From assembly GCA_964599455.1 (NCBI GenBank), contig CAZREA010000002.1:51810-115809 (forward strand): a stretch of 64,000 nucleotides of DNA, read 5' to 3'. Shown here one piece after another: positions 6,458-63,924 of this stretch. The notes under the pieces are model-generated. The model made no database searches, had not been told where the DNA came from, and saw only the letters and a program-made list of their open reading frames with translations. The number at the start of each line of letters is the position of its first letter. The stretch's first letter is position 1. This DNA is from an uncultured Gammaproteobacteria bacterium. Its GTDB lineage: Bacteria > Patescibacteriota > Patescibacteriia > UBA9934. The position numbers were made by a program, and so were the translations under genes.

Positions 6458-6669
6458 AGGCGAAAATCAAAAGAAGAGTAACAGAGATTACCGCTTCTTG
6501 CATCCACAGAAAGTCCACAACGCACGTTGACAATAAAAGGCAATTTTGATGGAATAGAAATAACCTCGCGAAGCTCCGCTTCCTGTGGGTGGTACAAAAT
6601 CAACTCCCCAACAGTTCCTCATCTTTTGAGGTATCTGGGGGGTTATTTTGTTATATATCCCGAGAGTAT

Positions 6670-6745
6670 GGGTCAGTAGAGGTAACGGCAGCCTCGGCGA
6701 GGTTACCACCCGCAGGTGCGAGTTCGATTCTCGTCTGATCCACCA
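6670..6745 (+). tRNA. tRNA with encoded CCA, anticodon probably UAC (Val)
   Basis: 7-bp acceptor stem gggtcag/ctgatcc, 4-bp D-stem gagg/cctc, canonical T-arm gcgag-TTCGATT-ctcgt, discriminator A and CCA at 6743-6745. The anticodon stem has one A-C mismatch and the loop is gTTACCa, so isotype is uncertain. Confidence 0.6.
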
Positions 6746-6774
6746 ACAAGTTAAAAGCTTGCTCTCAGGACCAA

Positions 6775-6815
6775 AAAATCCCCTCATCACATACCGTGAG
6801 GGGATTTTGTATTGT
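6775..6815 (+). terminator. rho-independent terminator after the tRNA
   Basis: Hairpin atcccctca...tgaggggat followed by TTTTGTATTG. Confidence 0.6.
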
Positions 6816-6889
6816 GCAAAAAATTTCTTTTCTGTTAGGGTGAGAAAGGCTGTATTCAAAATCTCCATCTTCAACACGAGGAGAGAAAG

Positions 6890-7495
6890 ATGAAATACAT
6901 CATCACCGCTTTGCTCCTCGTCGTTCTCGGCTGCGGCCGGAATAAAGAGGAGGAGCAGTGCTCCGAGGTGAACATTTCGGAGTTCCCCGAGGATGACGAT
7001 CCTCGCTGGAGTATGCAGGGAGTATGGCTCACCAAGGCCGATCCGTTTCGTCGTCGCGTAGAGTGCGCGGAGCTCCCAGCCTTCGGGGTATACGCGACCA
7101 AACCGGGAGATCACCAGATCGACGAAATCCAAGTCGTAATTGTAGATTATTACGATCAAACTTGGATCGAAAGTCTTCCTGATGCCGGTCTATCAATCAC
7201 CGTCAACGGCGAACGGATCGGAACGTTCGACCCAGCAGGATTCGGGTCGAATACGTACGGCCTCGGAGCCGAGTGGGATGTCGTCATTTCGGACCTCGAC
7301 ATCTTCGTCAGCCCCGAAAGCCCTGTCACGTTCCAGTTTGTCCTGGTGGCGTGGCAGAACGAAGAGATTCTCGCCGGAATCGAGGATCTCTGGGATAAAG
7401 AAAAAGACAAGCTACAGATTTCTGCGATCGCGGCCGGTTACGGCTGCTGTTACGGCGGGCAAAGTAGAGCAATGTATCTCATCCCGCCCGACTAG
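6890..7495 (+). CDS. GC-rich hypothetical lipoprotein
   Basis: 201 aa; Shine-Dalgarno AGGAGAG upstream; signal peptide with lipobox LLVVLGC-G; about 60% GC against an AT-richer flank; sits directly downstream of a tRNA. Confidence 0.6.
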   Translation: MKYIITALLLVVLGCGRNKEEEQCSEVNISEFPEDDDPRWSMQGVWLTKADPFRRRVECAELPAFGVYATKPGDHQIDEIQVVIVDYYDQTWIESLPDAGLSITVNGERIGTFDPAGFGSNTYGLGAEWDVVISDLDIFVSPESPVTFQFVLVAWQNEEILAGIEDLWDKEKDKLQISAIAAGYGCCYGGQSRAMYLIPPD

Positions 7496-7519
7496 AGGAA
7501 GCTCGCACCCATTTGCCAG

Positions 7520-7566
7520 AGACCCACCCGTGGTCCCCGGCTCCGGGTGCGTTTCTGTTTTTACAA
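7520..7566 (+). terminator. GC-rich hairpin plus T-run, terminator-like
   Basis: cacccg...cgggtg stem followed by cgTTTcTGTTTTT; a near-identical 3' half recurs at 25940-25988. Confidence 0.45.
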
Positions 7567-7587
7567 TGTGCTAACCTATCAAAATCT

Positions 7588-8142
7588 ATGCCAACCATCA
7601 CTCTTGTCAGCTCTAATCCGCAAAAAGTCATCGAAGCACAGAGCATCCTTATCGGAACTGATATCGTCGCTCAAGGACTTGATCTTCCCGAGATTCAATC
7701 ATTCAATCTTGAAGAAATTGTTCGCGCAAAAGCCGAGGCGGCGTATCAGCAATTACAGTCACCCGTTTTGGTAGATGATGTCGCTATGGACATTTCGGTA
7801 TTAAAAGGATTTCCCGGACCATTTGTAAAATTTTGGGAGAAAAATGTGGGATATGATTTAGCAGTCGATATTGGGGGAAAATTTGAAGATCATCGCGCAG
7901 TCGTCCGATGTGGAGTGGGGTATGCAGATGGATCGAACATACTTTATACCGAAGGAATAATTGCCGGACAGCTTGTTGCTCGTCGGAATGGAGAAGGGTT
8001 TGGCTTTGATTTTTATTTTATTCCCGATGGTTATAATCAAACATTCGGTGAAATGGGACGAGAAGCAAAGAACAAAATCTCGCATCGGTATCTTGCTTTT
8101 GCGGCAATGAAAACAAAACTAAAAGAAAACGGCATTGTGTAA
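7588..8142 (+). CDS. rdgB: non-canonical purine NTP pyrophosphatase (RdgB/Ham1 ITPase family)
   Basis: The ORF track starts at 7513, but the internal ATG at 7588 gives MPTITLVSSNPQKV (ITLATGNKGK-like N-terminus); FGFDFYFIPDGYNQTFGEM and KNKISHR motifs are typical of Ham1/RdgB. Confidence 0.85.
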   Translation: MPTITLVSSNPQKVIEAQSILIGTDIVAQGLDLPEIQSFNLEEIVRAKAEAAYQQLQSPVLVDDVAMDISVLKGFPGPFVKFWEKNVGYDLAVDIGGKFEDHRAVVRCGVGYADGSNILYTEGIIAGQLVARRNGEGFGFDFYFIPDGYNQTFGEMGREAKNKISHRYLAFAAMKTKLKENGIV

Positions 8143-8179
8143 TTATATTTTGAAAATATTTTCAATATAAGCGCGGCCA

Positions 8180-8803
8180 TTACTGGCCGCACGAAACGAA
8201 GACGCCTCGGCCCGAGAAGCAATCAAGAAATCGCTTCCAGGGAATATAGGCATGTGACTGGGTGTTGAGACTAGTGAAACCAGTTGAGTTGTGAAGAATG
8301 ACACCAGCCTCATCTTCATGCTCGTAATACCCGTAGACAAGGACAAGATGACCATTCCGGCTTTGTGGCGGATCACCATCGCGATAGCGAATCTGCGGTG
8401 ACACCGAAGCGATGAGAAATTCGTCGTTGTTCACGGCGGTTTGGATATCGCTCTGCACGATCTCTTTCGCAGTACGTGCTGGACGAGCGATTTGCGTTGA
8501 GACAAACTCGGCGAGCTCGTGATGATACGCACCGATAATGCGACCATCAGTCTTCCGATACACGTCCTTCTGGGTTGCACTTTCGTAGAGATCAGTGAGA
8601 GAAGGTGGTTGAAGTTCGAGGCTCAGTGCCATCATGCGCAGGCAACACATGCCGCACCAATTCCCTTCTGGCAATTGCCAATTTCCATCCTTCCAGTCAA
8701 AAATCCACTGCTCAATGTTTTCCTTTGGTTCGATTTGCGGAACGTAGTATTGGCGAGGATGCTGCCGCATCGGTGAGACGAGGATTTCCATGTTGTTCTC
8801 CAT
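8180..8803 (-). CDS. C39-like (papain-fold) cysteine peptidase domain protein
   Basis: NWCGMCCLRMMALSL (Cys motif) and GHLVLVYGY (His motif) resemble the Peptidase_C39_2 family. Start uncertain: ATG candidates overlap the upstream TrmB-like ORF, so a non-ATG start is possible. Confidence 0.45.
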   Translation of the reverse strand: MENNMEILVSPMRQHPRQYYVPQIEPKENIEQWIFDWKDGNWQLPEGNWCGMCCLRMMALSLELQPPSLTDLYESATQKDVYRKTDGRIIGAYHHELAEFVSTQIARPARTAKEIVQSDIQTAVNNDEFLIASVSPQIRYRDGDPPQSRNGHLVLVYGYYEHEDEAGVILHNSTGFTSLNTQSHAYIPWKRFLDCFSGRGVFVSCGQ

Positions 8804-15250: not shown

Positions 15251-16243
15251 TCATAATCCTTTCGTAAGGTTCATACCGCTTGTGATATGACGAATGGTCG
15301 AGGTGAGCCTGTAGGCATTCGCATAAGTACAAAGACCTAAATAAGAGCTCACATTCTTTTTCGTCACTCGTCGAACCATCCTGTGCGCAGTATCAGGACG
15401 TATGATCGTTGCATAGGGGAGAAGAATATAACCAAGGAAGTCAAAACCCTGCGTCCAGGTACGAACATGTATTTTATCTGGATGTAATTCGATCTTGAGA
15501 TTCTTACGAAGAAAAGCATCGACCTGCCCTGCTAATGCAAATCCTTTCTTTCGAGAAGAGGTGAGCATAATAAAATCGTCACAATAACGAAGATACTGTT
15601 TTACTCTGAGCGTTTGTTTTACATACCAATCAAGCTCGTGAAGATATACATTGGCAAATAATTGACTCGTAAGGTTGCCAAGAGGAATTCCTGTTCCGGG
15701 CGACACGGAAAAACTTGTAACGATATTACGCAGTAATGTCATTACGCGCGGGTCCGATATCCGTTTGGAGAGAAGCTGGAGCAGAATGACATGATTGATT
15801 GACGCAAAAAATTTTCGTACGTCACACTTTATCGCATGTATGGTTTTTGTATTGTTCTTTGATGTTTGGTGAGCGAACTTTCGCAACCTTCGTACTGCAG
15901 CATGAGTACCCTTACCAACTCTACACGAATAGCTGTCATGAATAAACCGTTCCTCAAATAACGGTTCGATAACATTGACAATGGCCTGATGAACAACTCT
16001 ATCCTTTACCTCTGCTTTATGGATTATCCGCTCCTTTGGGTCGTGAATGGAAAAGGCTTGATAAGGGCGGTGGCGATAGCTACCCGAAATAAGCTCTTCT
16101 CGTATTGCAAAAAGGTTGTCCTCAAGCCTCCGTTCGAATACCATGACGTCTTCACGAGTCCGCTTACCTTTACGAAAACGTTCCCACGCCAAAAGCAGAT
16201 TCTCAATCGATGCCAAGTGCTCGAATACATCGTTATTCCCCAT
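15251..16243 (-). CDS. diversity-generating retroelement (DGR) reverse transcriptase
   Basis: RT motifs: SYSCRVGKGTHAAV (motif 2), KCDVRKFFASINH (motif A), LGNLTSQLFANVYL (the DGR-type IGxxxSQ motif B'), and RYCDDFIML (YxDD). At 330 aa it is the size of bRT. TR/VR repeats lie adjacent. Confidence 0.85.
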   Translation of the reverse strand: MGNNDVFEHLASIENLLLAWERFRKGKRTREDVMVFERRLEDNLFAIREELISGSYRHRPYQAFSIHDPKERIIHKAEVKDRVVHQAIVNVIEPLFEERFIHDSYSCRVGKGTHAAVRRLRKFAHQTSKNNTKTIHAIKCDVRKFFASINHVILLQLLSKRISDPRVMTLLRNIVTSFSVSPGTGIPLGNLTSQLFANVYLHELDWYVKQTLRVKQYLRYCDDFIMLTSSRKKGFALAGQVDAFLRKNLKIELHPDKIHVRTWTQGFDFLGYILLPYATIIRPDTAHRMVRRVTKKNVSSYLGLCTYANAYRLTSTIRHITSGMNLTKGL

Positions 16244-16265
16244 TCTATGAATGACACTATTTTCT

Positions 16266-16275
16266 CCCCCCCCCC
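16266..16275. repeat. C10 homopolymeric tract in the 56-bp RT/avd divergent intergenic region
   Basis: ctcccccccccccaggc; a slipped-strand-prone tract positioned where divergent promoters would lie. Confidence 0.6.
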
Positions 16276-16299
16276 AGGCTTAACCGAGAAGAGCGACAA

Positions 16300-16656
16300 T
16301 TGCTCCGCGGAGGTCCCGGCGATATTCCCATCGTTCATACGCTCTATGACACCTATGTTTTATGGAATGAAGTGTTAGAAAAGTTTCCTAAACTGCAACG
16401 TTACACGCTCGGTGAAAACTGTTCGCGATACTTACTCTGTACCCTCGAGCTTCTTCTCGCTGCCGCAACATTAGCAAGCCAAACAGAGAAATTGATAAAA
16501 CTGAAAGAAGCAAGCGCGAAGATTGATACCGTGAAACTCCTTGTACGACTCTGTAAAGATTGTAAATGCATAACCAATATCCACTATCTCAAAACCGAAT
16601 CCAAACTTATTGATATAGGAAAGATGTTGGGAGGATGGATAAAATCTGCAGGATAA
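16300..16656 (+). CDS. avd: Avd-like accessory protein (four-helix-bundle family), encoded opposite to RT and TR
   Basis: FPKLQRYTLGENCSRYLLCTLELLLAAATLA and a C-terminal IDIGKMLGGWIKS resemble the four-helix-bundle/Avd family (BPP-1 Avd ends VGRILGSWIARV). The minus strand has no ORF of 60 aa or more here. Start codon uncertain. Confidence 0.6.
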   Translation: MLRGGPGDIPIVHTLYDTYVLWNEVLEKFPKLQRYTLGENCSRYLLCTLELLLAAATLASQTEKLIKLKEASAKIDTVKLLVRLCKDCKCITNIHYLKTESKLIDIGKMLGGWIKSAG

Positions 16657-16658
16657 GA

Positions 16659-16690
16659 GAAGGAGCGCCTTTCGGCGCTCCTTTGCCTTG
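16659..16690. terminator. perfect hairpin between avd (+) and TR (-), putative bidirectional terminator
   Basis: aggagcgcc-tttc-ggcgctcct with T-rich flanks. Confidence 0.5.
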
Positions 16691-16696
16691 ATGAGA

Positions 16697-16832
16697 ACTC
16701 CCGAGGGGAGGGACGGAGTAACCGGGGTTGTCGTTGCTCCGCCAATTGGCGTTCAGCTTGACCTTACCGGAATCGGTGTTGCGGTTCACAACCACCACGT
16801 TCTGCCACTCCTCGTTATCATTCTCGGGGACG
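16697..16832 (-). repeat. DGR template repeat (TR)
   Basis: 136 bp, about 88% identical to 17280-17415. All 16 mismatches are T in this copy on the plus strand, i.e. A on the minus (sense) strand. The in-frame TR translation (NDNEEWQNVVVVNRNTDSGKVKLNANWRSNDNPGYSVPPLG) is rich in AAC/AAT Asn codons. Confidence 0.85.
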
Positions 16833-17279
16833 CCTCCCTTTACATCCCATTCTTCCAGGCCACCGGGTACAGACGCATCCAAGGCCAGCCGAATCTCCAG
16901 ACCCCTGGCTCGTACTGACCGTACCCTGAATTTTATGCGGAACCTGTCGCCGAATACAGGCTGGTTCCAAAATGGAATGCGGAGTGCTCGTCAATCCGCG
17001 CCGCACGCTCCGGCATTCAAGGGAAAACGGGATTCCGACGGCATATTGGGACTGCAAGAGATTTCGGCGATCCACCTTCGCCAAGGCTACGGTGGACGCA
17101 CTGGCCTACTTTCCGCTCACAGTTTACCAAAAAGTTGGACAAATAGAAGAGCGGCACCTGGGGAATACCGTCCTTCGTAGGAGGCAAAAACCAGATGCCG
17201 CGAGTCCGCTGCGCGGACGGACGGCCAAGGGACAAATCCCAAGGCCTCCGAGCGCCAAGCGTTCAAGTGCCGAGTATCA

Positions 17280-17415
17280 CTACCCGAGGGGAGGGACGGA
17301 GTAACCGGGGCGGTCGTCGCTCCGCCAACTGGCGAACAGCCTGACCTCACCGGAACCGGTGTGGCGGAGCACAACCACCACGCTCTGCCACTCCTCGCCA
17401 CCATTCTCGGGGACG
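17280..17415 (-). repeat. DGR variable repeat (VR) at the 3' end of the target gene
   Basis: Counterpart of the TR; VR carries C/G/A wherever TR has A (sense strand). It ends exactly at the target-gene stop codon (TAA, 17280-17282). The identical 28-nt GC-rich 3' segment cccgaggggagggacggagtaaccgggg is initiation-of-mutagenic-homing (IMH)-like. Confidence 0.85.
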
Positions 17416-18212
17416 TTAGCCTCATAGCCAGCGCAGTACCAGGCACAGGTCTTGTCGTAGTCGATGACGCCCACCCGCTTCGGGAACAACCACGCGAGCA
17501 CCAGGCCTTCGTCCGCGAGGGACTGGGCATTGCGCACCGACGTGACGTCTTTTCGCTTGCGGTTGGCCGAGAGGTCATTGATGATGACCCACTCGACGAC
17601 CGCGTGGTGTGTCTCATTGCCGTTGAGGAGCCGAAGGCGCTCCACGTCCTCGCCCTGATAAGGCATCGGCTTGGAGTGCAGCAGCTCCCAGCGCCAGTGC
17701 TTGGGGTGGACACGACGCATCGCTTCCCAGTGACGCTCGAAGGTAAGGTACACGCCCTCCGTGCCCTCGCCCCAGCGGATGCGGAGGCTGCGAAACGCAT
17801 CCTTGCCCTTGGGCCAGGCGGGAGCAGTATCGGCGAGCCGGAAGAACACGTCTTCAGTGATACCCCAGTTACCGGCCTCGTTCTGGGCACGAAGGGCGGC
17901 GAGCTGCTCGTCCACCGTCTGCTCGAATGGGTTGGCGTCGGCCTTCTGGTTCGCGGCCTCCACCACGAACTTCATCAGCTCGTCGTCGCCGAGAAGCTTG
18001 AGGAAGAGGGCCATGGAGCCGCCGAAGCGGAAGAAACGGCCGAAGAACTCATCGGCCTGACGGAGAAACACGTTCATCACGCACCTCGAAGCCATCTCTG
18101 ACCAGCCCACAGGAACGCGGCATGCGCCCCATGAACCCTGCCTCTGTTTATTGAGAATGGCGGTTTGGAGCCAAAAAAGCCACAAAACGCCATGCTCAAC
18201 TACGAGAAACAA
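17280..18212 (-). CDS. DGR target protein (variable C-terminus), GC-rich
   Basis: 310-aa ORF at about 60% GC whose last ~45 codons are the VR (…NGGEEWQSVVVVLRHTGSGEVRLFASWRSDDRPGYSVPPLG). N-terminal start uncertain; no obvious signal peptide; fold not recognised. Confidence 0.7.
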   Translation of the reverse strand: MFLVVEHGVLWLFWLQTAILNKQRQGSWGACRVPVGWSEMASRCVMNVFLRQADEFFGRFFRFGGSMALFLKLLGDDELMKFVVEAANQKADANPFEQTVDEQLAALRAQNEAGNWGITEDVFFRLADTAPAWPKGKDAFRSLRIRWGEGTEGVYLTFERHWEAMRRVHPKHWRWELLHSKPMPYQGEDVERLRLLNGNETHHAVVEWVIINDLSANRKRKDVTSVRNAQSLADEGLVLAWLFPKRVGVIDYDKTCAWYCAGYEANVPENGGEEWQSVVVVLRHTGSGEVRLFASWRSDDRPGYSVPPLG

Positions 18213-18263
18213 GGGGTAATAATAACAAAAAAAAGCAAAAAAGTCAACGAACGTGACTGAAAT

Positions 18264-19088
18264 CTACGAATTCTTTTCAAAAAGAAGCTCGATGTGATTC
18301 ATGAGCTTGGGAAGCCCTTGCGCAATGTCCGCACTCAACGGTCCCTCGTGATCATCCATCGCCTCAAGAGCAATCCGAATCATAGAATGAAACCGTGTGG
18401 GAAGATGCTCAAGGCACCATCGCGCTGCAGCTCTCTTGGAGATGGGCTTGTTTTCGTGAAGCGTATAGGCGATTCGGCACAACTGAATCGTAAAATACAT
18501 CTGGTTCCACAAATCGTGACTTCCCCACTCTTCAATGCCTCTTTTTACTTCCTTAAACTTTTCTTGCAACGCATCCTGCAAAAGATGCGGATCTATTTCT
18601 GAAATAAACATTTTTGGCTCCGGACCGTAGAGCACAAGACCGCAATCACGAATATTTTGTATATCCATACTCGCCCCTTCCATATGAGCATTGTCTCGCA
18701 TTTGACCGCCAGAAAAACCGATCGTTTCAAGATGATTTTGTATCTCGCTTGTAATCGACTCTTTATTGGCAATGTCTAACTCTAGACGACGAAACCACGA
18801 ACTTGTTGCAAGTGGACCATTTTCATACCATTGTTGCAGACGAGATTGCCCTTCTGCATCAAGTGTCCTCGTTGTTACTACAAACACATCAACATCACTT
18901 CGTTCTTCTTCAAAATCGCCATACGACAATGATCCGTAAATATAGATTCCATACAAAACATCTTCCAACACGCTTGGAAGTTCTTTTTGTAAAATTCGTA
19001 AACATTTTTTGAGATCTTCGGGAATATTTTCTGTTTCAAAGTTTCGTTGACGTTGATATTCCATATTGTTCAAAACTGTATGATCCAT
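18264..19088 (-). CDS. nucleotidyltransferase (ANT(3'')/AadA-like, with DUF4111-like C-terminus)
   Basis: GIYIYGSLSYGDFEEERSDVDVFVV is the Pol-beta-superfamily GS-x(n)-D-x-D motif; length and C-terminal domain resemble the aminoglycoside adenylyltransferase family. Confidence 0.65.
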   Translation of the reverse strand: MDHTVLNNMEYQRQRNFETENIPEDLKKCLRILQKELPSVLEDVLYGIYIYGSLSYGDFEEERSDVDVFVVTTRTLDAEGQSRLQQWYENGPLATSSWFRRLELDIANKESITSEIQNHLETIGFSGGQMRDNAHMEGASMDIQNIRDCGLVLYGPEPKMFISEIDPHLLQDALQEKFKEVKRGIEEWGSHDLWNQMYFTIQLCRIAYTLHENKPISKRAAARWCLEHLPTRFHSMIRIALEAMDDHEGPLSADIAQGLPKLMNHIELLFEKNS

Positions 19089-25910: not shown

Positions 25911-25939
25911 ACGACACCTTGTGCACTCACGTGCCAAAG

Positions 25940-25988
25940 ACGCCACCTCGGCGCCCGCGGCCGTGGGTGCGTTTTTGTTTTTACCTTC
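25940..25988 (+). terminator. GC-rich hairpin plus T-run, terminator-like; paralogous to 7520-7566
   Basis: …gccgtgggtgcgTTTTTGTTTTTac versus …ctccgggtgcgTTTcTGTTTTTac at 7540-7566. Confidence 0.45.
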
Positions 25989-32100: not shown

Positions 32101-32493
32101 ATGCCTCCTCTCTCTCCCTTACAGTACCGTTGGTCCTTGGTAAAGAAAGCGCTTTTCGGAGATCATGAAATTATCTACGAAGTTTTGGTGCATCATAAAA
32201 ATAATCTGCCTGCAAAAAATGTAGAAGTTTCTTGGCAAAGAGATGGTGAATATATTGTCGGAACAATCATGACAGGCGGCGAAACCTACATGACCCAAGC
32301 GCGTTCAGCTCAGGAATTTGTAGAAATGGTTAATGACGCACTCTATGCGGCATATGAGGTTCCTCAAGAATACGCTCAGCAACTCGGAGGATATTATCGT
32401 CTCATGCCATCAGCGGATGAATTTAACAGATTGAATAATGTAGCGATCAAAAAGTCGTCGCTCAATTTTGATAGAACAGCTATAGCTGCATAA
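32101..32493 (+). CDS. hicB: HicB-like antitoxin (UPF0150/RNase H-like fold)
   Basis: DGEYIVGTIMTGGETYMTQARSAQEFVEMVNDALYAA resembles the HicB core (EGGY..F.DIPEA.TQGET..EA...A.DAL); it sits immediately upstream of a HicA-like ORF. Confidence 0.45.
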   Translation: MPPLSPLQYRWSLVKKALFGDHEIIYEVLVHHKNNLPAKNVEVSWQRDGEYIVGTIMTGGETYMTQARSAQEFVEMVNDALYAAYEVPQEYAQQLGGYYRLMPSADEFNRLNNVAIKKSSLNFDRTAIAA

Positions 32494-32499
32494 ATTCCT

Positions 32500-32751
32500 A
32501 TGGGGGAATATGCCGATGTCAAACGCAAAAGAATACTTAAGCTCCTGAAATGGTTGGATGCGCAATCAGGTTTCTCAATAGATCATGGCGGCAATCATCA
32601 GTGGAATGTAAAACATGTTTCGTGGCTAAGACCATTCCCCATTCCCTTCAAACATAATATTGTGAACAAACACATCATAAAAGCACTGATGGAAAAGGTG
32701 ATAGAAACAACTGTCTGTACGAAAGAGGAATTTGATCAACGATTAAAATAG
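32500..32751 (+). CDS. hicA: HicA-like mRNA interferase toxin
   Basis: GGNHQWNVKH...RPFPIPFKHNIVNKHIIKALMEKV matches the HicA pattern GSNH..L.H....P.H...I....I.K.L. Confidence 0.5.
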   Translation: MGEYADVKRKRILKLLKWLDAQSGFSIDHGGNHQWNVKHVSWLRPFPIPFKHNIVNKHIIKALMEKVIETTVCTKEEFDQRLK

Positions 32752-32847: not shown

Positions 32848-33732
32848 ATGAGAATCAGTCGAGAACTTTCACGACAAGATGCGGAAAGAGCCGCACAGTC
32901 GCTTCGGGAACTTTTGCCAAACGGGGAAATTCCCCGCGTGGCCGTCGTTCTCGGCAGCGGCTGGGGCGATGCTCTTCCTTTGCAGGTTGCTCATGAGCGG
33001 CCCCTGCACGGAGGAGTGTCAGGCTTCGAGGACCTCGAACCTCATCCAACCCACGCGCGCAGAGTGCGTGTCGGAACCGTCAACGGAATATTGGTGATTG
33101 CGCTCCAAGGGCGCATTCATCTCAACGATGCGCTTCCGGGAACGACGGAGGAAGGTCGAATCTACGCCATGACGCGTCTGCAGGTGGAGATGCTGTACGC
33201 CCTGGGCGTACGCACCTTCATCCTGACCTGTGCCGCGGGTAGGTTGAGACCGAAGGGAAAGCCGCTGATCCCGGTAGGCAGCCTGGTGGTCATGGACGGT
33301 TTCGTGACCGGTTTTGCTCCGGCTATGCCGGGATTCAGTGGTGAGTTCCGAACCGCTGAAGATCTCCTCATCCACGAAAAGGAGGTGCTCAACGCCATCA
33401 AGAAAGGCGCACGGAATAATCCAAAAGTTCGAGTCGGCGGCTACCTCATGGTTCGCGGCCCGTTCTTTGAGGGGCGGAGGTACGACAAGCGGGTATATGC
33501 CAATACCGGCGCAAGCGTCATTGGCATGAGCGTGCTGCCCGAGGCAGCAGCACTCGCCGCTGCTTCGATGGGACGCGAGTCGTGCCGCATCGTAGGACTC
33601 GCCTTCGTCAGCAACGACGAGAAAGAGGTACACAGCGACGAAGAGATCCGTCGTCGTGCAGGCGAGTCGAGCGTCAAGCTCGGCGGGGCGCTCGAGCGCC
33701 TTATCGCGTACCTCGACACGAATCCGCAGTGA
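32848..33732 (+). CDS. purine nucleoside phosphorylase family protein (PNP/MTAP family, PF01048-like), GC-rich
   Basis: VVLGSGWGD, ALQGRIH, LTCAAGRL and GMSVLPEAAALA motifs; about 60% GC. Confidence 0.75.
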   Translation: MRISRELSRQDAERAAQSLRELLPNGEIPRVAVVLGSGWGDALPLQVAHERPLHGGVSGFEDLEPHPTHARRVRVGTVNGILVIALQGRIHLNDALPGTTEEGRIYAMTRLQVEMLYALGVRTFILTCAAGRLRPKGKPLIPVGSLVVMDGFVTGFAPAMPGFSGEFRTAEDLLIHEKEVLNAIKKGARNNPKVRVGGYLMVRGPFFEGRRYDKRVYANTGASVIGMSVLPEAAALAAASMGRESCRIVGLAFVSNDEKEVHSDEEIRRRAGESSVKLGGALERLIAYLDTNPQ

Positions 33733-33776
33733 CCGTAGGCCCATGCTGCACTCACGTGCGGCATGGGCCTTCATGT

Positions 33777-36489: not shown

Positions 36490-37350
36490 TTACTTGCTTG
36501 GTGGTATTTCTTCAACATCGGGCCTGGTCGGCATAGCAAAAATAGGAGGCGGAGGTAAAGATACGTACTCATTATCGTCGTTATCATCCTGATTACTATC
36601 CCCTTTCCCAGAAGAACTATGGTCTTGAGCATCACTTAACGCATGCTTCATCGCACCTCGTACCTCATCTTCATCAGGCACCTCCTCTAAATCAGGTCCG
36701 GAAACGGGAGTAATAGCGGCATCATCACTGATATTCTCCTCGTTCAAACCTTGCAACGTTTGATCAAACTCTTCGGCTAAAGCATCAAAAAAAGCTCGGA
36801 GGAGCTCCGTATCACCCGACTGTTCACGTACATATCGCCCAATGCCATTAAAGTCTAACTGTTGAAAAACCATCAGTGCGTCAGGATCAGTATCATCTCC
36901 TTCATGAATACGAAATGCTGACTGCTGACAAATTTCCAGAATATCTTTCATTACTTGCCTTCTTTCAGAAAATGGGAGTGCTTCAAGAATTTCTCTTGCT
37001 TTTGTAGTGAGGTGGTAATGAAATTGCGACAAAAGAACGCCATCAAGTGCCTGCATCGCTTGCTCAAGATCGGCAGTATACACGTCTCGTTCCGAAAGGA
37101 TGCCCAGCAACATGCGCTCAGCGGCCTTCATGGTTTGCTCATCCCATCCATTTTTTAAAAGGGTGAGGAGCAAATGGTCTAGTCGAGCTTCGATACGCAT
37201 ATACGCTTCACGCTCGCTTCCTGACGCTTTTGCGGCAAGTTCACGAGTCTTGGCACATTCGACGGTAACTTTTGCAGAAAAGGTATCAAATTCCCTTGAT
37301 TCTTTCTGGCGCATCGACTCTGATCTGCCTGTTTCTTGAAATGGAGGCAT
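36490..37350 (-). CDS. hypothetical acidic protein
   Basis: 286 aa; Asp/Glu-rich C-terminus; no recognised domain. Confidence 0.4.
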   Translation of the reverse strand: MPPFQETGRSESMRQKESREFDTFSAKVTVECAKTRELAAKASGSEREAYMRIEARLDHLLLTLLKNGWDEQTMKAAERMLLGILSERDVYTADLEQAMQALDGVLLSQFHYHLTTKAREILEALPFSERRQVMKDILEICQQSAFRIHEGDDTDPDALMVFQQLDFNGIGRYVREQSGDTELLRAFFDALAEEFDQTLQGLNEENISDDAAITPVSGPDLEEVPDEDEVRGAMKHALSDAQDHSSSGKGDSNQDDNDDNEYVSLPPPPIFAMPTRPDVEEIPPSK

Positions 37351-37461
37351 AAAAATGATTTTTTATAGCATAACAGAGAGCTGTTCAAAGAAAAATGATG
37401 CCCCTTGAAAACTCAGAGATTCACAAAATTCTTCTTTTCTGGCAGACTATGTTCGCATCCT

Positions 37462-37549
37462 GGTGGGGTGCTCGAGTGGTTTAAGAGGACAGTCTTGAAA
37501 ACTGTTGTGCTGAAAGGTACCGCGAGTTCGAATCTCGCCCCCACCGCCA
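37462..37549 (+). tRNA. tRNA-Ser (anticodon UGA), class II with long variable arm, CCA encoded
   Basis: Acceptor ggtgggg/ccccacc; anticodon stem acagt/actgt with loop cTTGAAa; long variable arm; T-arm gcgag-TTCGAAT-ctcgc. Confidence 0.8.
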
Positions 37550-37554
37550 AGAAA

Positions 37555-37590
37555 AAGTCTCGGTTTGTGCCGAGGCTTTTTCTTATTCGC
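37555..37590 (+). terminator. rho-independent terminator after tRNA-Ser
   Basis: agtctcgg...ccgaggct hairpin followed by TTTTTCTT. Confidence 0.65.
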
Positions 37591-37622
37591 AAGCTTTGCT
37601 ACAGTCCGCTGCGGAGGTGAAC

Positions 37623-38174
37623 ATGGACGATATTCTCGTCGTTGGTGTCCTGCAAGATCTTCCGGGCGCGGTGAAGATCCTGGAAGAGGGTCTCAATCGC
37701 GACGGCCCAGCGGCAAAGCGTGGTCCGCTGCGGCAGTCCGCCATCAACTCGGCGTTTCGTGGCAACGGTCGCGTAATTGCTGTGTTCCACAATGAGGTGA
37801 TCGTCGCCTGGGCACAGCTCGCAAACATCGACTTGCTCTATGGCCCGTCGTTCGTCGAGCTGTGTCGATATTGGGGCGACGATCACTACATCGCTTCGAA
37901 CATGTTCAAAGTGCTCCTGACCGAAGCCTGTCATGTAGCGCTCGATGAATGGGACGCGATCCAACTCAACTGCACGGTGTGGCAGGAAACAATCCTTCCA
38001 AGCTTCATGCACATGGGGTCGCGTATCCTCAGAGATGAAGAAGGAAAGGTGTGGTACATATGGACGGCGACTGTCGGATCGTCGCCCGTCGATGAGCAAC
38101 TCGTCTTCGACGATGAACCCAAGCTCCCCCACATCCTCGATCGCGCTCGGTGCTTCCGCTTCGTTCGCTCCTAA
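37623..38174 (+). CDS. GC-rich hypothetical protein directly downstream of tRNA-Ser
   Basis: Shine-Dalgarno GGAGGTGAAC then ATG at 37623; 183 aa; about 58% GC; followed by hairpin gcagaccc-ttca-cggggtctgc at 38184-38215. The antisense ORF 37599-38132 is judged spurious. Confidence 0.45.
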   Translation: MDDILVVGVLQDLPGAVKILEEGLNRDGPAAKRGPLRQSAINSAFRGNGRVIAVFHNEVIVAWAQLANIDLLYGPSFVELCRYWGDDHYIASNMFKVLLTEACHVALDEWDAIQLNCTVWQETILPSFMHMGSRILRDEEGKVWYIWTATVGSSPVDEQLVFDDEPKLPHILDRARCFRFVRS

Positions 38175-38270
38175 AACCCTCTTCGCAGACCCTTCACGGG
38201 GTCTGCTTTCGTGTCTATTTCGTATTTCACTTCGAATTGAACAAACGATCTATTTTCGACCTTTCAAATG

Positions 38271-38639
38271 TCATTCTCGTTCATTTCTTTTATAATCTTC
38301 GATATATACATTCCTTAATACAGATGCAAGTTCGTCGGAATCTGTATCAACGAATGCTTTTGCTAATAATTTCATTCTTCGCTCGTGTCCTTCATCTTTC
38401 AGCGCTCGAATTCTTGTATCGAGAACCATCCGACCCTCATCAAGCTGATAAGCAGCACTTTCGCTACGCTGCATATCAGCTAGAAGAACGCGAAGTCGAC
38501 TTTTCAGATCTGCCAGGGTTCGTTTCTCTTCTTCTGAATAAACCCCGTCTAGCTCTGGTAAAACCCTGCGAATATCGTCAATGGTCAGCATAAGATAGGT
38601 TAATTTTTCTTTCCATAGAAAGAATAGAATATCTTGCAT
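38271..38639 (-). CDS. hypothetical protein
   Basis: 122-aa charged, helical ORF. Confidence 0.35.
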   Translation of the reverse strand: MQDILFFLWKEKLTYLMLTIDDIRRVLPELDGVYSEEEKRTLADLKSRLRVLLADMQRSESAAYQLDEGRMVLDTRIRALKDEGHERRMKLLAKAFVDTDSDELASVLRNVYIEDYKRNERE

Positions 38640-38807
38640 CTTCTAACAACCACCTCCTATCCATTCACCTCAAATTGCCATCCTCTCCCGATAACGTCTT
38701 CGGTGGAATTGATCTCTAGCGAGTGTCATAAAACCAATATGAACGGCTCGTGCAGTCGTTTTTATGTTACAGTACTTTTGAAAATCTGATCATAACATGC
38801 ATCAATC

Positions 38808-45555: not shown

Positions 45556-45632
45556 GCGCTCGTAGCTCAGTTGGATAGAGCATCAGCTTGCGGAGCTGAG
45601 GGTCGCACGTTCGAGTCGTGCCGAGCGCACCA
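45556..45632 (+). tRNA. tRNA-Arg, anticodon read as GCG, CCA encoded
   Basis: Acceptor gcgctcg/cgagcgc; D-loop with A20; anticodon stem tcagc/gctga with loop tTGCGGa; T-arm gcacg-TTCGAGT-cgtgc; discriminator A. Confidence 0.75.
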
Positions 45633-46985: not shown

Positions 46986-47798
46986 TTACCGAGACTTTTT
47001 TGCGAAAGAAAAAAGCACACTTCCTATATACAATCCCAACGCAACTAACACAATGGTCGCTCCTGCCGCCAAATCAGCCACAAACGATAACCACAGCCCC
47101 ACCATAATCGCAATCACCGCATTGATAACTGCAATACCTAATGTCGCTACAAATCCTTTTCCCCAGCGCTCGGCAGCTAATACGGGAATAACCATGAGCG
47201 CACTTACCAAAAGTGCACCAACGACACGCATGCCCACAGCTACAACAACCGCAGCGAGAGCCGCAAAAAGCATCTCGTAGATAACCACCGGAATACCCTG
47301 CGCTTTTGCCAAACGATCATCAAAAGTAATAAGAAAGAATTCTTTATAAAAGAGAAAAATGATCAGGAGTGCAACAAAACCAATGCCATACATCACCGCG
47401 ACATCCATCCACGTTACTGCAGTGATACTGCCAAAAAGATACGAGAGAAGCTGCGTATTAAATTTCTTCACGAGCCCCATAACCACCACCGCAATCGCCA
47501 AACTTCCCGATAACACCAATGCCAGGGCTGCATCACCGGACAATTGACCCTTGCTGCGCAAACGCTCCATCACAAGCGCCGCCATCACGGCACTCATCAT
47601 CGCTGCCCACAACGACGACATGCCAAAGACAAATCCCAAGGCTACTCCGGCCAATGAGGCGTGCGCCAAGGTGTCGGCGAAAAACGATTGCCGTCGCGCC
47701 ACAAAAAAAGTGCCGACCGTGGGCGCCAACAAACCCACCGCCAGCCCTGCCAACAACGCACGCTGCAAAAAGGCAAAAGTAAATAAAGCTTCAACCAT
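46986..47798 (-). CDS. znuB: metal ABC transporter permease (ZnuB/TroC-like)
   Basis: 8-TM ABC-3 family pattern; conserved FxxD and VGxxL motifs. Confidence 0.8.
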   Translation of the reverse strand: MVEALFTFAFLQRALLAGLAVGLLAPTVGTFFVARRQSFFADTLAHASLAGVALGFVFGMSSLWAAMMSAVMAALVMERLRSKGQLSGDAALALVLSGSLAIAVVVMGLVKKFNTQLLSYLFGSITAVTWMDVAVMYGIGFVALLIIFLFYKEFFLITFDDRLAKAQGIPVVIYEMLFAALAAVVVAVGMRVVGALLVSALMVIPVLAAERWGKGFVATLGIAVINAVIAIMVGLWLSFVADLAAGATIVLVALGLYIGSVLFSFAKKSR

Positions 47799-47802
47799 AG
47801 AA

Positions 47803-48978
47803 TTAATGACGATGAAGAACGCGCACGGAGCTATCAAGCCAACGCTTTTCACAAGCCCAAGCGGCCAGGAGGGTGGATAACGGTACCGCCAGAATCAAGG
47901 CTGTGCCACCAACAAGTGCCCGCAATATTTCTTCTACAATCGTCTCGGTATTTAACAGCACCCACAAGGGTGGATTATCGGGCATCGAAAACAACAAAAA
48001 GAGCGGAAATGATGCCCCAACATAAGCCAATGCAAGCGTGTTAATGAGTGCAGCGATGTGCTCACGCCCAACAGAAAGTCCGCGTTTATACAATTCATAA
48101 AAATCAAGATTGGGGTTGGCATGATGAATTTCTTCAACGGCCGCCACTTGAGCAGTAGTCACATCATCAAGCACACCGAGTACACCAATAACAATTCCTC
48201 CTAACAACAGTCCACGCAAATCAAGTCCTGACAAATATCCTAATTGCAAATACACCGCCTCTTCGGTACTTGCACCTGTTAACATCGCAAAGGTTACTGA
48301 GAGATACGCTAAACCAAAAGCAACCGTCAGTGTCAACAATGTTGCCACCAAAGCGACATAACTGCGACGATGGAAGCCGTGAGAAAGCACAATTGAAACG
48401 ACAGCAATAACCACCGACCCAATAGCGCTTACCAAAAAGGGATTATCTCCGGCCACGATACGCGGCACCACATATGCAAGCAATACGACAAAAGAGATTC
48501 CCAAGCCAAATAACGACATGAACCCACGTTTTCGCCCTAATGCGATGGCAAGAGCAAAAAAGAATAGTGCAAAAACCGCAACAATTGGAAGGCGAAATTG
48601 ATCAATAACCACATACAGAGCTCCAGTGTTATTGGGAGATTTCATCATCAAAACTGGATCTCCTTCGCGCAAAAGCGTATGCGCCGATCCTGCCTTGGTA
48701 GTTGTATATTCGATTGTCTGTACAGAACCTTTCTCGTTTCCGGAAACGATTTCGACGAGCACAACTTGTGTAATATCACCAAAACCGGCGATCTCAGTTT
48801 CCTTTTGTTCAATAATGCTCAGCACGTTACCAAGCATATATGAGGGAAAGGTATCGTGAAGAACGGCTTGAGTTGAGGAAGGAATACCCGTGTCTTCCTG
48901 TGCAAGAAGCGAAAAAGGGGGAAATATCAAAAAGATACTGCAGATGACGCCGACAATGAGTAAAAAAATGTTTTTCAT
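47803..48978 (-). CDS. YibE/F-like polytopic membrane protein
   Basis: Signal peptide/TM, an extracytoplasmic domain, then 7-8 TM helices; resembles the YibE/F family. Confidence 0.55.
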   Translation of the reverse strand: MKNIFLLIVGVICSIFLIFPPFSLLAQEDTGIPSSTQAVLHDTFPSYMLGNVLSIIEQKETEIAGFGDITQVVLVEIVSGNEKGSVQTIEYTTTKAGSAHTLLREGDPVLMMKSPNNTGALYVVIDQFRLPIVAVFALFFFALAIALGRKRGFMSLFGLGISFVVLLAYVVPRIVAGDNPFLVSAIGSVVIAVVSIVLSHGFHRRSYVALVATLLTLTVAFGLAYLSVTFAMLTGASTEEAVYLQLGYLSGLDLRGLLLGGIVIGVLGVLDDVTTAQVAAVEEIHHANPNLDFYELYKRGLSVGREHIAALINTLALAYVGASFPLFLLFSMPDNPPLWVLLNTETIVEEILRALVGGTALILAVPLSTLLAAWACEKRWLDSSVRVLHRH

Positions 48979-50756: not shown

Positions 50757-51449
50757 TCACGTGGCACTGCCGTAAGCAAGGGTGAGAACTTCGATTCGCT
50801 TTGCACCTGCTGCTTGTAATGCCAAAGCTGCTGCGGTGGCCGTTGAGCCGGTTGTCCACACATCATCCACAAGCAGAATCGTTTTTTCTCGAACCATATC
50901 AGGCTTTACACAAAGAAAAGGTTGTTCGGTGATAATCGCGACTCGTTCCTGTTTGTCCTTTTGCGCCTGCGCCTTGCCCGGAGTCCGTGTCAGGACATCA
51001 CAAACAGGTTTTTGCAGAAAATCCCCTACCCCATCCGCTATGGTTCTCGCTTGATTAAAACCTCGCTCGGCCTGTTTTTGTGGAGCTAACGGAACAGGAC
51101 AGATGCAATCACTATCGCCAAATAGTGACCCAACCTGTTCTCTTTCTAAATGTTCTTTCGTTAAAAACCATAACAGTTCAATACCCTGTTTATCTCCACT
51201 ATATTTATAAGCTTGCAACAATTGACGTACGGTTGGTGATCCATACGGAAAAAATGCCTGTACTCGGGCAATTGGCTCGGGAATCTCGGTTGGATGCCAG
51301 ATATTTTTCGGTCTTTCAAAGACATCAGTACATGATCGACAGAGCAAATCTCCTTCCGTCCCACAGGTAACACACTGCCGCGGGAAACAGGCATCAAGAA
51401 GCAAGGTCCACCAACGACCTATTCCCAACGATATTGCGCGACCTTCCAT
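50757..51449 (-). CDS. comF: ComF family protein (phosphoribosyltransferase-like competence protein)
   Basis: N-terminal C4 zinc finger (CVTCGTEGDLLCRSC) and a C-terminal PRTase motif ILLVDDVWTTGST. Confidence 0.75.
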   Translation of the reverse strand: MEGRAISLGIGRWWTLLLDACFPRQCVTCGTEGDLLCRSCTDVFERPKNIWHPTEIPEPIARVQAFFPYGSPTVRQLLQAYKYSGDKQGIELLWFLTKEHLEREQVGSLFGDSDCICPVPLAPQKQAERGFNQARTIADGVGDFLQKPVCDVLTRTPGKAQAQKDKQERVAIITEQPFLCVKPDMVREKTILLVDDVWTTGSTATAAALALQAAGAKRIEVLTLAYGSAT

Positions 51450-52003
51450 GTGGTATCGGCTTTGACAAGCACAAGAACAATTTCTTGATAACGAACTTCG
51501 GCATTCCCCGGATTGCCTCGCGCTTCATTGCGTTGCGTTTGGATACGCAGAGTCATTTCTGTATCGGTTTGGGAAACGGTTTTGGTACTCATAACCGTCG
51601 TTGAGATGCCATAATATCCGCCTTCAAGACTCTCTTCACTCTTACGGGAATCTTCGGCATTGCGTTCAAGCTCGGCACCAAGCTGATCGGTCACCAAACT
51701 CAAGACATCATGAATATTTTCGTAATTACTTTCTGATGAATAGCTGCCGAGACGCTCGACAAACGTGCGCGCCACAGTGGCCGGAGCCGTGACCTTGGGT
51801 GTGCTGGAAACGGTTGCGGGCGTGGTGGTATCGGTGGAAGTTGTCGGTTGGTCTTCGTTTGTTGGCAGAGTCTGTGTATTATCTGTTTCTGTGGTCTCAA
51901 CCTTAGCTTGTGGAGAGAATAAGAAAAGCCATAGCAATAAACCGATAAGGCCAAGTAGCAAAATAAGTGCCAAAACAATTTCGATAATGCGTTTGCGTTC
52001 CAT
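51419..52003 (-). CDS. hypothetical membrane-anchored protein (possible VirB8-like T4SS component)
   Basis: N-terminal TM, a Thr/Pro-rich linker and a ~100-aa globular C-terminus; lies at the edge of the T4SS-like cluster. Confidence 0.35.
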   Translation of the reverse strand: MERKRIIEIVLALILLLGLIGLLLWLFLFSPQAKVETTETDNTQTLPTNEDQPTTSTDTTTPATVSSTPKVTAPATVARTFVERLGSYSSESNYENIHDVLSLVTDQLGAELERNAEDSRKSEESLEGGYYGISTTVMSTKTVSQTDTEMTLRIQTQRNEARGNPGNAEVRYQEIVLVLVKADTTWKVAQYRWE

Positions 52004-52006
52004 AGA

Positions 52007-53938: not shown

Positions 53939-53941
53939 AGG

Positions 53942-54643
53942 TTAAGACAGTTTGGTTTCAAGTTGCAGCTTCGCAATCTCTTCGAGTGGTTGCGTATCGG
54001 CAACTTCAGGATTATAGGTGTTGTAATACAACTCAATAAGGCCCTGCGTATCAAGGAGCGCCACCGCAAGTCCCATACTTTCCAAGCCACCTCCAATCAT
54101 CTCTGCTCTACGCATGAGTCGTTCGTGGCGTTCGGCAAATTGCTTGGCATTGAGCTTTACTACTGAAGCCGGTGAGATGGCTGTTTGGACCTTAGCGAAA
54201 AAACCTTTGCCTTTTTCGCCCGATTCCGAAGGATCGTAGGGAATAATCACAAAAAAACGCTTTTGCATGATTTCTCCCAAATCGACCAGTTCTTTAATAA
54301 ACGAAACGTAATCGCGAATTTGTGTTTTTAACAGCTCGTTGGCAATGGTTTCTTCTTGTGATTTTAACTTTGCAAGATAGCCATCAATATTCATTTTGCG
54401 CGATTGAATGCAAATCTGAATTGGATGTTCGAGCGTATTTAAAAACTGCATGTAGCCTTGAATAACCGCTTGTTGTTCGTCGTCACTTTTGAGGGCAAAA
54501 TTGATACTGGAAACCATGAGCACACTGCGCATGGTGCCGTCTTTCATGACCACGGCATTTTCACGAATTTCGGCAATATCCAAAAAACGTTGCGTGGGAG
54601 GAGCGAATTTTGGCTTGGTCATGGTAGTGCTCGTTTTTGCCAT
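53942..54643 (-). CDS. VirB4-like N-terminal domain encoded as a separate ORF (split gene or pseudogene)
   Basis: FLDIAEIRENAVVMKDGTMRSVLMVSSINFALKSDDEQQAVIQGYMQFLNTL resembles the VirB4/PrgJ N-terminal region. Its stop TAA is separated by 3 nt (CCT) from the ATG of the ATPase ORF. Confidence 0.5.
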   Translation of the reverse strand: MAKTSTTMTKPKFAPPTQRFLDIAEIRENAVVMKDGTMRSVLMVSSINFALKSDDEQQAVIQGYMQFLNTLEHPIQICIQSRKMNIDGYLAKLKSQEETIANELLKTQIRDYVSFIKELVDLGEIMQKRFFVIIPYDPSESGEKGKGFFAKVQTAISPASVVKLNAKQFAERHERLMRRAEMIGGGLESMGLAVALLDTQGLIELYYNTYNPEVADTQPLEEIAKLQLETKLS

Positions 54644-54652
54644 ACAAAAATA

Positions 54653-55099
54653 TTATCTTCCCTCTTCTTCATCACTGCGATAAACGCCACCCGTATTCAC
54701 AACGAGCGTTAACTCAGACAAACGCGACGTTTCCAATGGACTTTTGACCGGACGTTTTTCCACAGCGGCGGCAATATCCTTTTTTAAATAGACGCGTAAA
54801 TCAGCATCAGACAGCGTTTTATCCCAAATACGACGAGCAGGTTTTTTGATCGTCTGAAAAACATTTAACACAATAAAATGCAACGGTTGCCCATTCACTT
54901 TACCAAAGGCAAAAGCTGCACCAAGCCCAGCAACGGGCAATCCAACGGCAAGCATGGCCACGACATTTAAAAAGATGCGATAAATAATAAATTCAGTCAC
55001 GATCACGCCGACCATGATAATAAATTGTCGCAAGGTAATCGGACCAAGAATTTTTGGCTCGACATCAAGAAATTGTGGCACGACAAATTGCTGAGGCAT
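54653..55099 (-). CDS. PrgI/VirB3-like small T4SS membrane protein
   Basis: Start taken at the internal ATG at 55099 (MPQQFVVPQFLDVEPKILGPITLRQF...) followed by two TM helices, matching the PrgI family layout. Confidence 0.5.
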   Translation of the reverse strand: MPQQFVVPQFLDVEPKILGPITLRQFIIMVGVIVTEFIIYRIFLNVVAMLAVGLPVAGLGAAFAFGKVNGQPLHFIVLNVFQTIKKPARRIWDKTLSDADLRVYLKKDIAAAVEKRPVKSPLETSRLSELTLVVNTGGVYRSDEEEGR

Positions 55100-55221
55100 G
55101 AGGGAAGTATAGCAGAAGGGAGAGAGGGGATTGAGGGAAAAGGATAAGGAATGTTTTTGAGGAGGTTTTAAGGAGGAATCAGGTGATAAAACATCACAAA
55201 TCATCCACATCTTCTCTCCCC

Positions 55222-57171: not shown

Positions 57172-57177
57172 ACCTCC

Positions 57178-60249: not shown

Positions 60250-60298
60250 AGTAAACAGAAAAACGGCTCGAGTACATGAAGTACCCGAGCCGCACGAT

Positions 60299-62191: not shown

Positions 62192-62254
62192 TCGTTGGAA
62201 GTCTTATGAAAGACGAGTGGGAAAAACGATTGCATTGCGTTACAAAACGATTTT

Positions 62255-63275: not shown

Positions 63276-63448
63276 AAAGATTATTCAGGGGAGAATAATG
63301 ACGGCAATGGGTCTGCGAAAAGAGTATAGCAAATAAACACCCCCCTTGATTTTTAGCCAAATTTTTGTTATATTCACTATGCCGAATCGTCGCTACATAT
63401 GGCGATGACGAGACAAAACCTTTTTTTCCGCTAGGAGGCTCGAAAGAG

Positions 63449-63919: not shown

Positions 63920-63924
63920 GTCCG

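Follow-up and report, generated by a model that had tools for sequence, protein, structure and literature searches.

Evidence for a conserved, class-specific compositional dialect in envelope genes of a Candidate Phyla Radiation bacterium

The window analyzed here is a stretch of 64,000 nucleotides from contig CAZREA010000002.1 with an overall guanine-plus-cytosine (GC) content of 47.7%, in which nine open reading frames (ORFs), together about 6.7 kb or about 10% of the window, stand out as GC-rich. This study concerns the origin of their composition. Judging from RadA, which is 59–67% identical to the RadA of metagenome-assembled genomes (MAGs) labelled Candidatus Uhrbacteria or Patescibacteria group, the source genome is a member of Candidatus Uhrbacteria (Patescibacteria); some of the matching MAGs carry a wrong Gammaproteobacteria label in their records. 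The gene order around radA was collinear with that of 13 related loci.

The GC-rich genes were designated A to G. Gene A (6890–7495, plus strand) has a GC content of 0.55 and a GC content at third codon positions (GC3) of 0.65, and gene B (17280–18212, minus strand) has 0.62 and 0.80, respectively. The GC3 values of C1 (24410–24955, minus strand), C2 (25126–25473, plus strand) and C3 (25578–25910, plus strand) are 0.86, 0.83 and 0.83. They are followed by D (32848–33732, plus strand; GC 0.60, GC3 0.66), E (ORF 37596–38174, gene 37623–38174, plus strand; 0.57 and 0.69), F (60299–62191, minus strand; 0.61 and 0.78) and G (ORF 63365–63919, gene 63449–63919, plus strand; 0.56 and 0.64). The 50 other genes of the window served as the background set; their GC3 was 0.423 ± 0.050 with a maximum of 0.538, against 0.64–0.86 in the nine ORFs (z-scores of 4.3–8.7), and the distribution of gene GC3 was bimodal. 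The preliminary description of this DNA had spoken of genes of about 60% GC scattered in a lower-GC genome. The scatter is borne out by the GC3, codon-usage and dinucleotide profiles, while the figure fits B, D and F (0.60–0.62) and overstates A, E and G, which reach only 55–57%.

At the third positions of the GC-rich genes, C and G are both increased and A and T are both decreased. Their codon dialect is that of a genome with about 60% GC (TTC 0.85 vs. 0.26, GAC 0.63 vs. 0.19), and the usage of Lys is halved. Since CGT and GGT also drop, the shift is a general move to GC and not an optimization of the tRNA type. The dinucleotide signature gave a delta* of 163 for the GC-rich set compared with 37 ± 12 for control samples of equal size. 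The foreign look of the nine genes is supported by all these measures. The GC-rich stretches begin at the start codon and stop after a GC-rich terminator hairpin, and the promoter regions stay AT-rich. The borders with the flanking genes were mostly sharp when examined for a GC gradient, and therefore they do not clearly argue either way on biased gene conversion.

The window derives from an assembled metagenome, and exact matches to its proteins were confined to one 148-kb NCBI contig and two Logan run assemblies, which could raise the suspicion of a chimeric assembly or of mis-binned high-GC fragments. However, the same junctions around A occur in the two independent run assemblies, the limits of the GC-rich stretches are those of single genes, whose promoters and ribosome-binding sites are like the host's, and the same pattern recurs in many unrelated assemblies. 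We consider an artefact of this kind hardly credible.

The nine proteins share no mutual similarity, so that paralogy was ruled out. Known families were recognized only in D (PNP_UDP_1) and F (Peptidase_M23); the other GC-rich proteins received no phage or NCBIfam names, and sequence matches in the PDB were absent for B, E and C1. Long ORFs lie antisense to F (60233–62209, plus strand), B (17361–18101, plus strand), C1 (24377–25015, plus strand), E (37599–38132, minus strand) and G (63431–63937, minus strand). Antisense coding was ruled out here: the ORFs are a by-product of the lack of TTA, CTA and TCA codons in these genes, and they mislead gene calling by the longest ORF. In addition, a strong AT skew (+0.30 to +0.37) was observed at 47001–48500 over two minus-strand genes, whose products are by sequence membrane-protein-like and secreted-protein-like.

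Gene F encodes an M23 peptidoglycan-peptidase lipoprotein and heads a cluster of genes (50757–60249, minus strand) encoding a ComF-like protein, a protein of 194 aa, a VirB4-like ATPase (52007–53938), a TraC-like protein, PrgI and proteins of 649 and 1023 aa. This cluster lies at background GC and matched the Pfam families P-loop_TraG/AAA_10/DUF87, PrgI and Pribosyltran. Based on its gene content, the region 50757–62191 is recognized as a chromosomal type IV secretion system (T4SS) cluster of the Patescibacteria MPF-FATA-like kind. Such a Patescibacteria cluster is described in PMC12102498, where Peptidase_M23 and LysM domains are reported for VirB1-like proteins and where peptidase and lysozyme genes beside virB4 are given as essential for the epibiotic growth of Ca. 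Southlakia. That paper, searched for "GC content" and "M23", gave no mention of a compositional oddity of the M23 gene. The M23 domain and the conserved adjacency suggest that F is a putative peptidoglycan hydrolase associated with the T4SS. The neighbouring gene for the 1023-aa protein (57178–60249) is itself a mosaic, with a GC3 of 0.53–0.62 over codons ~80–440 and of 0.20–0.47 elsewhere.

The whole VirB4 cluster was collinear with six related loci (L092, L094, L102, L107, L108 and L109), with VirB4 identities of 70–85%, and a homologue of the 1023-aa protein comes next after the M23 gene in 14 of 21 related loci. Homologue searches in 5.8 billion protein clusters, which covered A, D and F, returned more than 100 full-length homologues of F at 45–57% identity, and the named ones belong to Uhrbacteria or Patescibacteria. 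The identity between F and its L092 orthologue (48%) lies within the range of the syntenic neighbours (31–81%). Because the VirB4 and M23 identities to the window are only weakly correlated (rho 0.43, n = 6, not significant), the co-inheritance of the two genes rests on synteny.

The GC excess of the M23 gene is not limited to the window. Its GC3 exceeds that of the rest of the cluster in the window (0.78 vs. 0.38–0.46) and in L094 (0.78 vs. 0.42–0.59), L108 (0.47 vs. 0.26–0.42) and L109 (0.70 vs. 0.54–0.64), as well as in L092, a genome of 61% GC (0.96 vs. 0.74–0.86). It was above the median of the neighbours in 16 of 18 genomes, with a mean excess of +0.20 over 17 related loci (Wilcoxon p = 4e-4), and the excess recurred across genomes whose background GC3 ranged from 0.31 to 0.72. 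Moreover, the GC3 of M23 follows that of the host (Spearman 0.69; logit slope 1.5 ± 0.36; offset of about +1 logit). In the M23 tree the excess is spread across a deep clade, in which the window and L091 are sisters with hosts of equal GC, and it follows the gene even where synteny is broken (L091). Directly after the M23 gene of one low-GC relative (L105), an ORF of repeated KRKRKMLKRKRK units was observed at 7261–8031.

At the conserved fourfold sites of M23, the identity of third bases was at or near the saturation expectation in every orthologue pair: it was 0.345 against an expected 0.357 for L094, it matched for L095, and it exceeded the expectation by about 2 sd for L091 and L092. Nevertheless, the GC content of the fourfold sites was 0.75–0.97 in every locus but L095, where it was 0.51 at a background GC3 of 0.36. 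Thus, F is ancestral and syntenic, and its GC excess is conserved, attached to the gene and has survived the turnover of synonymous sites. With synonymous sites at or near saturation, a single old transfer would long since have drifted to the composition of the host. It follows that either recent arrivals at the same site in every lineage from an unsampled donor, or a standing force, must be assumed. The recent acquisition proposed in the preliminary description therefore does not hold for F, for which relatives with the same GC skew in syntenic position were found.

The lipoproteins show the pattern as well. Based on an N-terminal lipobox and hydrophobic run, A (VVLGC), C1 (IASGC), F (IVSC) and G (LMAC) are predicted lipoproteins, and the lipobox Cys was invariant in the alignments of the families of A and F. 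These four are all the lipobox proteins that the window encodes, and each is GC-rich (Fisher p = 3e-4); the secreted proteins with an ordinary signal peptide are not. In the related loci, where a stricter gene caller was used after calling by the longest ORF had proved misleading, five of six non-M23 lipoprotein genes exceeded a GC3 difference of 0.15 compared with two of 115 other ORFs (p = 6e-7). The products were said earlier to be predominantly cell-surface proteins, which is right for the four lipoproteins and for C2, a small membrane protein, but not for B, C3, D and E, which lack a signal peptide.

G encodes a small acidic lipoprotein (…LGLGLMAC…) and is divergent from F. Unrelated GC-rich lipoprotein genes stand a few kb upstream of M23 in L091, L094, L095, L102 and L108. 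Two of the five lipoprotein genes with the excess, L091_6993 and L095_5696, encode homologues with 32% identity, are both GC3 outliers and, like G in the window, sit a few kb upstream of M23. It was also observed that the GC3-outlier genes of related Uhrbacteria loci (L091 6993–7820 and 12870–13937, L108 2940–3647, L102 362–1021, L095 5696–6520) are mostly small acidic lipoprotein genes, often among low-GC toxin–antitoxin genes (PemK, HicAB).

Other GC-rich genes lie in DNA that is absent from the same sites in relatives, at junctions which 11–13 related Uhrbacteria loci otherwise keep. B is the target of a diversity-generating retroelement (DGR). Its variable repeat (VR, 17283–17415) lies at the 3′ end of the gene, whose true start is likely internal, near 18014, and is 88% identical to a template repeat (TR) of 133 nt (16700–16832, minus strand); all 16 mismatches fall at template adenines. 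The reverse transcriptase (RT) gene (15251–16243, minus strand; Pfam RVT_1; GC 0.43) and the gene for the accessory protein Avd (16300–16656, plus strand; Pfam bAvd; GC 0.42) lie beside them. By its sequence features, the set of RT, Avd, TR/VR pair and B is recognized as a canonical DGR. Together with an AadA-like nucleotidyltransferase gene, the DGR makes up a cassette of 3.9 kb (15251–19088) between the genes for RseP and phosphoglucomutase. Since these two genes abut in L012 and L018, the whole cassette is an insertion. Within it, the RT and Avd genes are at 0.43 and 0.42 and the target is at 0.62, so GC-richness is not a simple mark of foreign DNA. As for a depletion of A through the adenine mutagenesis of the DGR, it was ruled out, as T at third positions is depleted as strongly as A.

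C1 encodes a lipoprotein (…LGLLIASGC…) for which no homologue was found in the related loci, and C3 is an ORF of 110 aa. The distance from the ClpC-like gene to the next conserved gene is about 1.0 kb in 11 relatives, compared with 3.1 kb here, where it holds C1–C3 and a CBS-domain gene. D encodes a divergent member of the purine-nucleoside-phosphorylase family, its NCBIfam matches being below the curated cut-offs. The RadA–RecG gap measures 21–600 bp in 11 relatives and 1.7 kb here, where it holds a low-GC HicAB-like pair and D. The pair (32101–32751) consists of two small genes, the second of which is HicA-like by eye with no Pfam match; genes of opposite composition thus stand together at this insertion site. 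The search with D returned 110 homologues, the best at 47% identity; the named ones (40–46%) belong to Uhrbacteria or Patescibacteria, and in three of four CPR (Candidate Phyla Radiation) loci the phosphorylase homologues had a GC3 excess of +0.10 to +0.15. The best match lies on L083, a contig of 61% GC with a CPR-like gene set. Accordingly, the DGR cassette with B, the genes C1–C3 and D are real lineage-specific additions, and to this extent the preliminary description is supported. The inserted genes were probably drawn from the Patescibacteria gene pool; they share the compositional dialect of the set.

Two of the GC-rich genes lie directly downstream of tRNA genes, as had been noted before: tRNA-Val(TAC) (6670–6745, plus strand) is 144 nt upstream of A, and tRNA-Ser(TGA) (37462–37549, plus strand) is about 70 nt upstream of E, both annotated by ARAGORN. 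B, C, D, F and G are not beside a tRNA gene. Absence from the same site in relatives was seen for B, C and D; the search for related loci returned none that spans either of the two tRNA neighbourhoods. Direct repeats of at least 12 nt involving a tRNA were absent from 6500–8300 and 37300–38800, and neither the GC-rich genes nor those around them matched an integrase, transposase or other mobility family in Pfam. Integration at tRNA loci is not upheld by these results. A further tRNA gene, tRNA-Arg with the anticodon GCG, was annotated by ARAGORN at 45556–45632; this anticodon is uncommon for bacterial tRNA-Arg.

The product of A is a lipoprotein of 201 aa with the N-terminus MKYIITALLLVVLGC. 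A word-indexed search of the protein clusters returned only the self-match, and an exhaustive HMMER search added five remote lipoprotein relatives at 28–33% identity that carry no taxon names. The AlphaFold model (pLDDT 81) is all-beta and predicts a beta-sandwich, for which the PDB gave generic matches at TM 0.5 or less and none specific. In the family of A, the L087 homologue is a GC3 outlier (0.80 vs. 0.44–0.62 in its contig). The product of E (183 aa) had no match in Pfam, PHROG, NCBIfam or the PDB.

The near-identical 20-nt terminator halves after A and C3 that had been pointed out earlier are confirmed. The 20-mer GGGTGCGTTTYTGTTTTTAC occurs at 7545–7564 and 25965–25984 (two matches compared with none expected by chance) as the 3′ half of two hairpins, 7517–7564 after A (plus strand; −24 kcal/mol, z = −3.9) and 25935–25984 after C3 (plus strand; −24 kcal/mol), which also agree in overall shape. 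Both hairpins are about 41–43 nt long and are followed by a U-run (UUUUU tails), and one stem pair is changed on both sides (G-C vs. A-U). By their fold, the elements are predicted to be Rho-independent terminators, and they probably share an origin; all Rfam matches to them were below threshold. An integron attC site was ruled out, as the GTTRRRY/RYYYAAC cores are absent and the shared element folds as a plain terminator. Two phage contigs of IMG/VR also carry the 20-mer, there in the terminator of an unrelated gene: the 23-nt GGGTGCGTTTTTGTTTTTACCTT and the 15-nt AGACCCACCCGTGGT are common, in the same order, to the window (7520–7564, 25965–25987) and to these contigs, whose matching stretches (L089 5518–5623 and L090 4439–4544, from one sample) run across the end of an ORF of 182 aa and the terminator behind it. 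A phage origin was ruled out as well, given that the proteins of the two contigs are not similar to those of the window, that viral contigs scanned with B gave no match, and that relatives of the RT reach only 37–45% identity. In addition, the 12-mer GCACTCACGTGC was observed downstream of C3 (25923–25934) and in the terminator loop after D (33748–33759); a dinucleotide-preserving shuffle gave two matches in one of 100 trials.

The results bear directly on the idea, put forward in the preliminary description, of recent acquisition from a high-GC donor outside the CPR, such as an actinobacterial host, with integration beside tRNA genes. The strong compositional atypicality and the position of A and E would suit it, and an envelope bias would fit host interaction; transfer from host to epibiont has been discussed for Saccharibacteria. 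However, the tRNA sites bear neither tRNA-fragment repeats nor an integrase or transposase, the C island had no DNA match in plasmid or phage collections, and all named homologues of D and F are from Candidatus Uhrbacteria or other Patescibacteria. Furthermore, a GC3 of 0.64–0.86 with a GC content of 0.61 at first codon positions points to a source of about 55–64% GC and not of about 70%, and F is ancestral, syntenic and GC-rich in relatives. For F and D, a donor outside the CPR is already contradicted. We regard such a donor as very improbable for the set, and recent tRNA-targeted transfer from an actinobacterial host as largely wrong.

Recurrent transfer within Patescibacteria, in which genes circulate among Uhrbacteria-like lineages and arrive from members with about 60% GC, must be taken more seriously, above all for the inserted genes B, C and D. 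It would include the like-for-like replacement of M23 at its conserved site, and in low-GC recipients the genes would always have the look of new arrivals. There are Patescibacteria-like contigs of high GC with homologues of the genes in question, namely L092 (61%; M23 and T4SS), L083 (61%), which holds the best phosphorylase match, and L088 (60%), which holds a member of the family of A. The GC-rich set is nearer to such contigs (delta* 89–119) than to the window's own genes (163), and its codon dialect behaves likewise. The insertion of B, C and D at conserved junctions, the nearly orphan state of A and the common origin of the A and C3 terminators also agree with such flow.

Nevertheless, two arguments mainly count against it. 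The first is the extra excess in the highest-GC host, where M23 is still the most GC-rich gene (0.95–0.96 vs. 0.72–0.86), although with a shared pool it should be lower there. The second is that the best identities in the 5.8 billion clusters were 57% (F), 47% (D) and 33% (A), and therefore every supposed donor would have to be unsampled. In addition, the GC3 of the gene climbs with that of the host with a slope of 1 or more, the window and L091, whose hosts are alike in GC, hold sister M23 genes, synteny is held in most related loci as given above, and the RT and Avd genes of the inserted cassette are of low GC. As an explanation of the set, recurrent flow of this kind seems to us possible but rather unlikely.

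Based on the above results, we lean slightly towards the following reading: the GC-rich genes were not taken over recently from a high-GC host but represent a class of Uhrbacteria genes with a lasting and heritable high synonymous GC. Lipoproteins form the core of this class, and the M23 cell-wall peptidase of the T4SS cluster is one of its members. A standing process favouring GC would act on this class of envelope genes. We would prefer selection at the level of the gene on GC-rich synonymous sites, because the GC property goes with the gene instead of the locus and ends at the gene borders; such selection may operate through the level or stability of the mRNA of abundantly made envelope proteins. 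GC-biased gene conversion at recombination-prone loci of surface proteins would come a close second, and some gene flow within the CPR was probably added.

In a wider form, which we put forward only tentatively, a class of envelope and host-interface genes (lipoproteins, the T4SS peptidoglycan peptidase, DGR targets) would be held far above the synonymous GC of the genome by a force that is gene-specific and long-lasting in Uhrbacteria and perhaps in the wider Patescibacteria. A bolder version would have the GC-rich dialect tuned beyond the average translation or mRNA economy of the cell, for example to the conditions of host attachment.

Several points weigh against the reading of a standing force. 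The GC-rich set looks exactly like the genes of a Patescibacteria genome of 60% GC, which transfer would fit equally well, and for C and D insertion is demonstrated. L102, L105 and L107 lack the excess of M23, and in the family of A an excess is seen neither in L086 nor in the uniformly 60%-GC contig L088. The envelope proteins do not include B, C3, D and E, so that a lipoprotein class does not cover the whole set. As to the comparisons, the neighbour ORFs of the related loci were called heuristically, in GC-rich stretches the longest ORF can lie on the wrong strand, the loci lack phylogenetic independence, and L092 is the sole high-GC host behind the claim of an offset at high background GC.

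Taken together, the data point to a compositional dialect that is conserved and specific to a class of envelope genes in the CPR. It is common practice to take atypical composition as a sign of recent horizontal transfer; for at least one gene of the window, and probably for a whole class, this is wrong. Should the standing force be real, an excess of GC3 would mark a gene class across deep divergences instead of pointing to recent transfer. If the pattern is genome-wide, such an excess could serve as a cheap pointer to surface and host-interaction genes in uncultured CPR bacteria, in which these proteins mostly lack annotation, and it would provide a bacterial example, exceptionally large and clear-cut, in which selection on synonymous GC could be told apart from biased gene conversion. 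The identity of an epibiont's host should likewise be inferred with caution from the composition of supposed islands.

Compared with known systems, the window resembles tRNA-integrated genomic islands in its atypical composition, in two genes just after tRNAs and in some patches absent from relatives, but it differs from them in having no integrase, no duplicated 3′ fragment of a tRNA and no multi-gene island at the tRNA sites, and in that F is ancestral. Horizontally acquired and orphan genes of bacteria are mostly AT-rich relative to the host, whereas the nine genes of the window are GC-rich. As in other DGRs, B is accompanied by RT, Avd and a TR/VR pair with all differences at template adenines. 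The mechanism is ordinary, and the oddity lies in a target of 62% GC beside RT and Avd genes of 42–43% in one cassette. F resembles the hydrolases of monoderm T4SSs (VirB1/PrgK/TraG analogues) in being an M23 peptidase at the edge of a VirB4/PrgI cluster; unlike them, it has no lytic transglycosylase or CHAP domain and ends in a long region of unknown fold that has an acidic linker.

A further parallel is found in the GC3 differences known within bacterial genomes, which Lassalle et al. (2015) reportedly attributed to GC-biased gene conversion, while Raghavan, Kelkar and Ochman (2012) are said to have found selection for higher genic G+C. In both those cases and the present one, a synonymous shift favouring GC is long-lived and unequal among the genes of a genome. 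Known differences between recombining and non-recombining genes are much smaller than those described here, which amount to +0.2 to +0.45 GC3, are bimodal and bounded by gene borders, and are tied to a recognizable class of genes, the lipoproteins and the T4SS peptidase.

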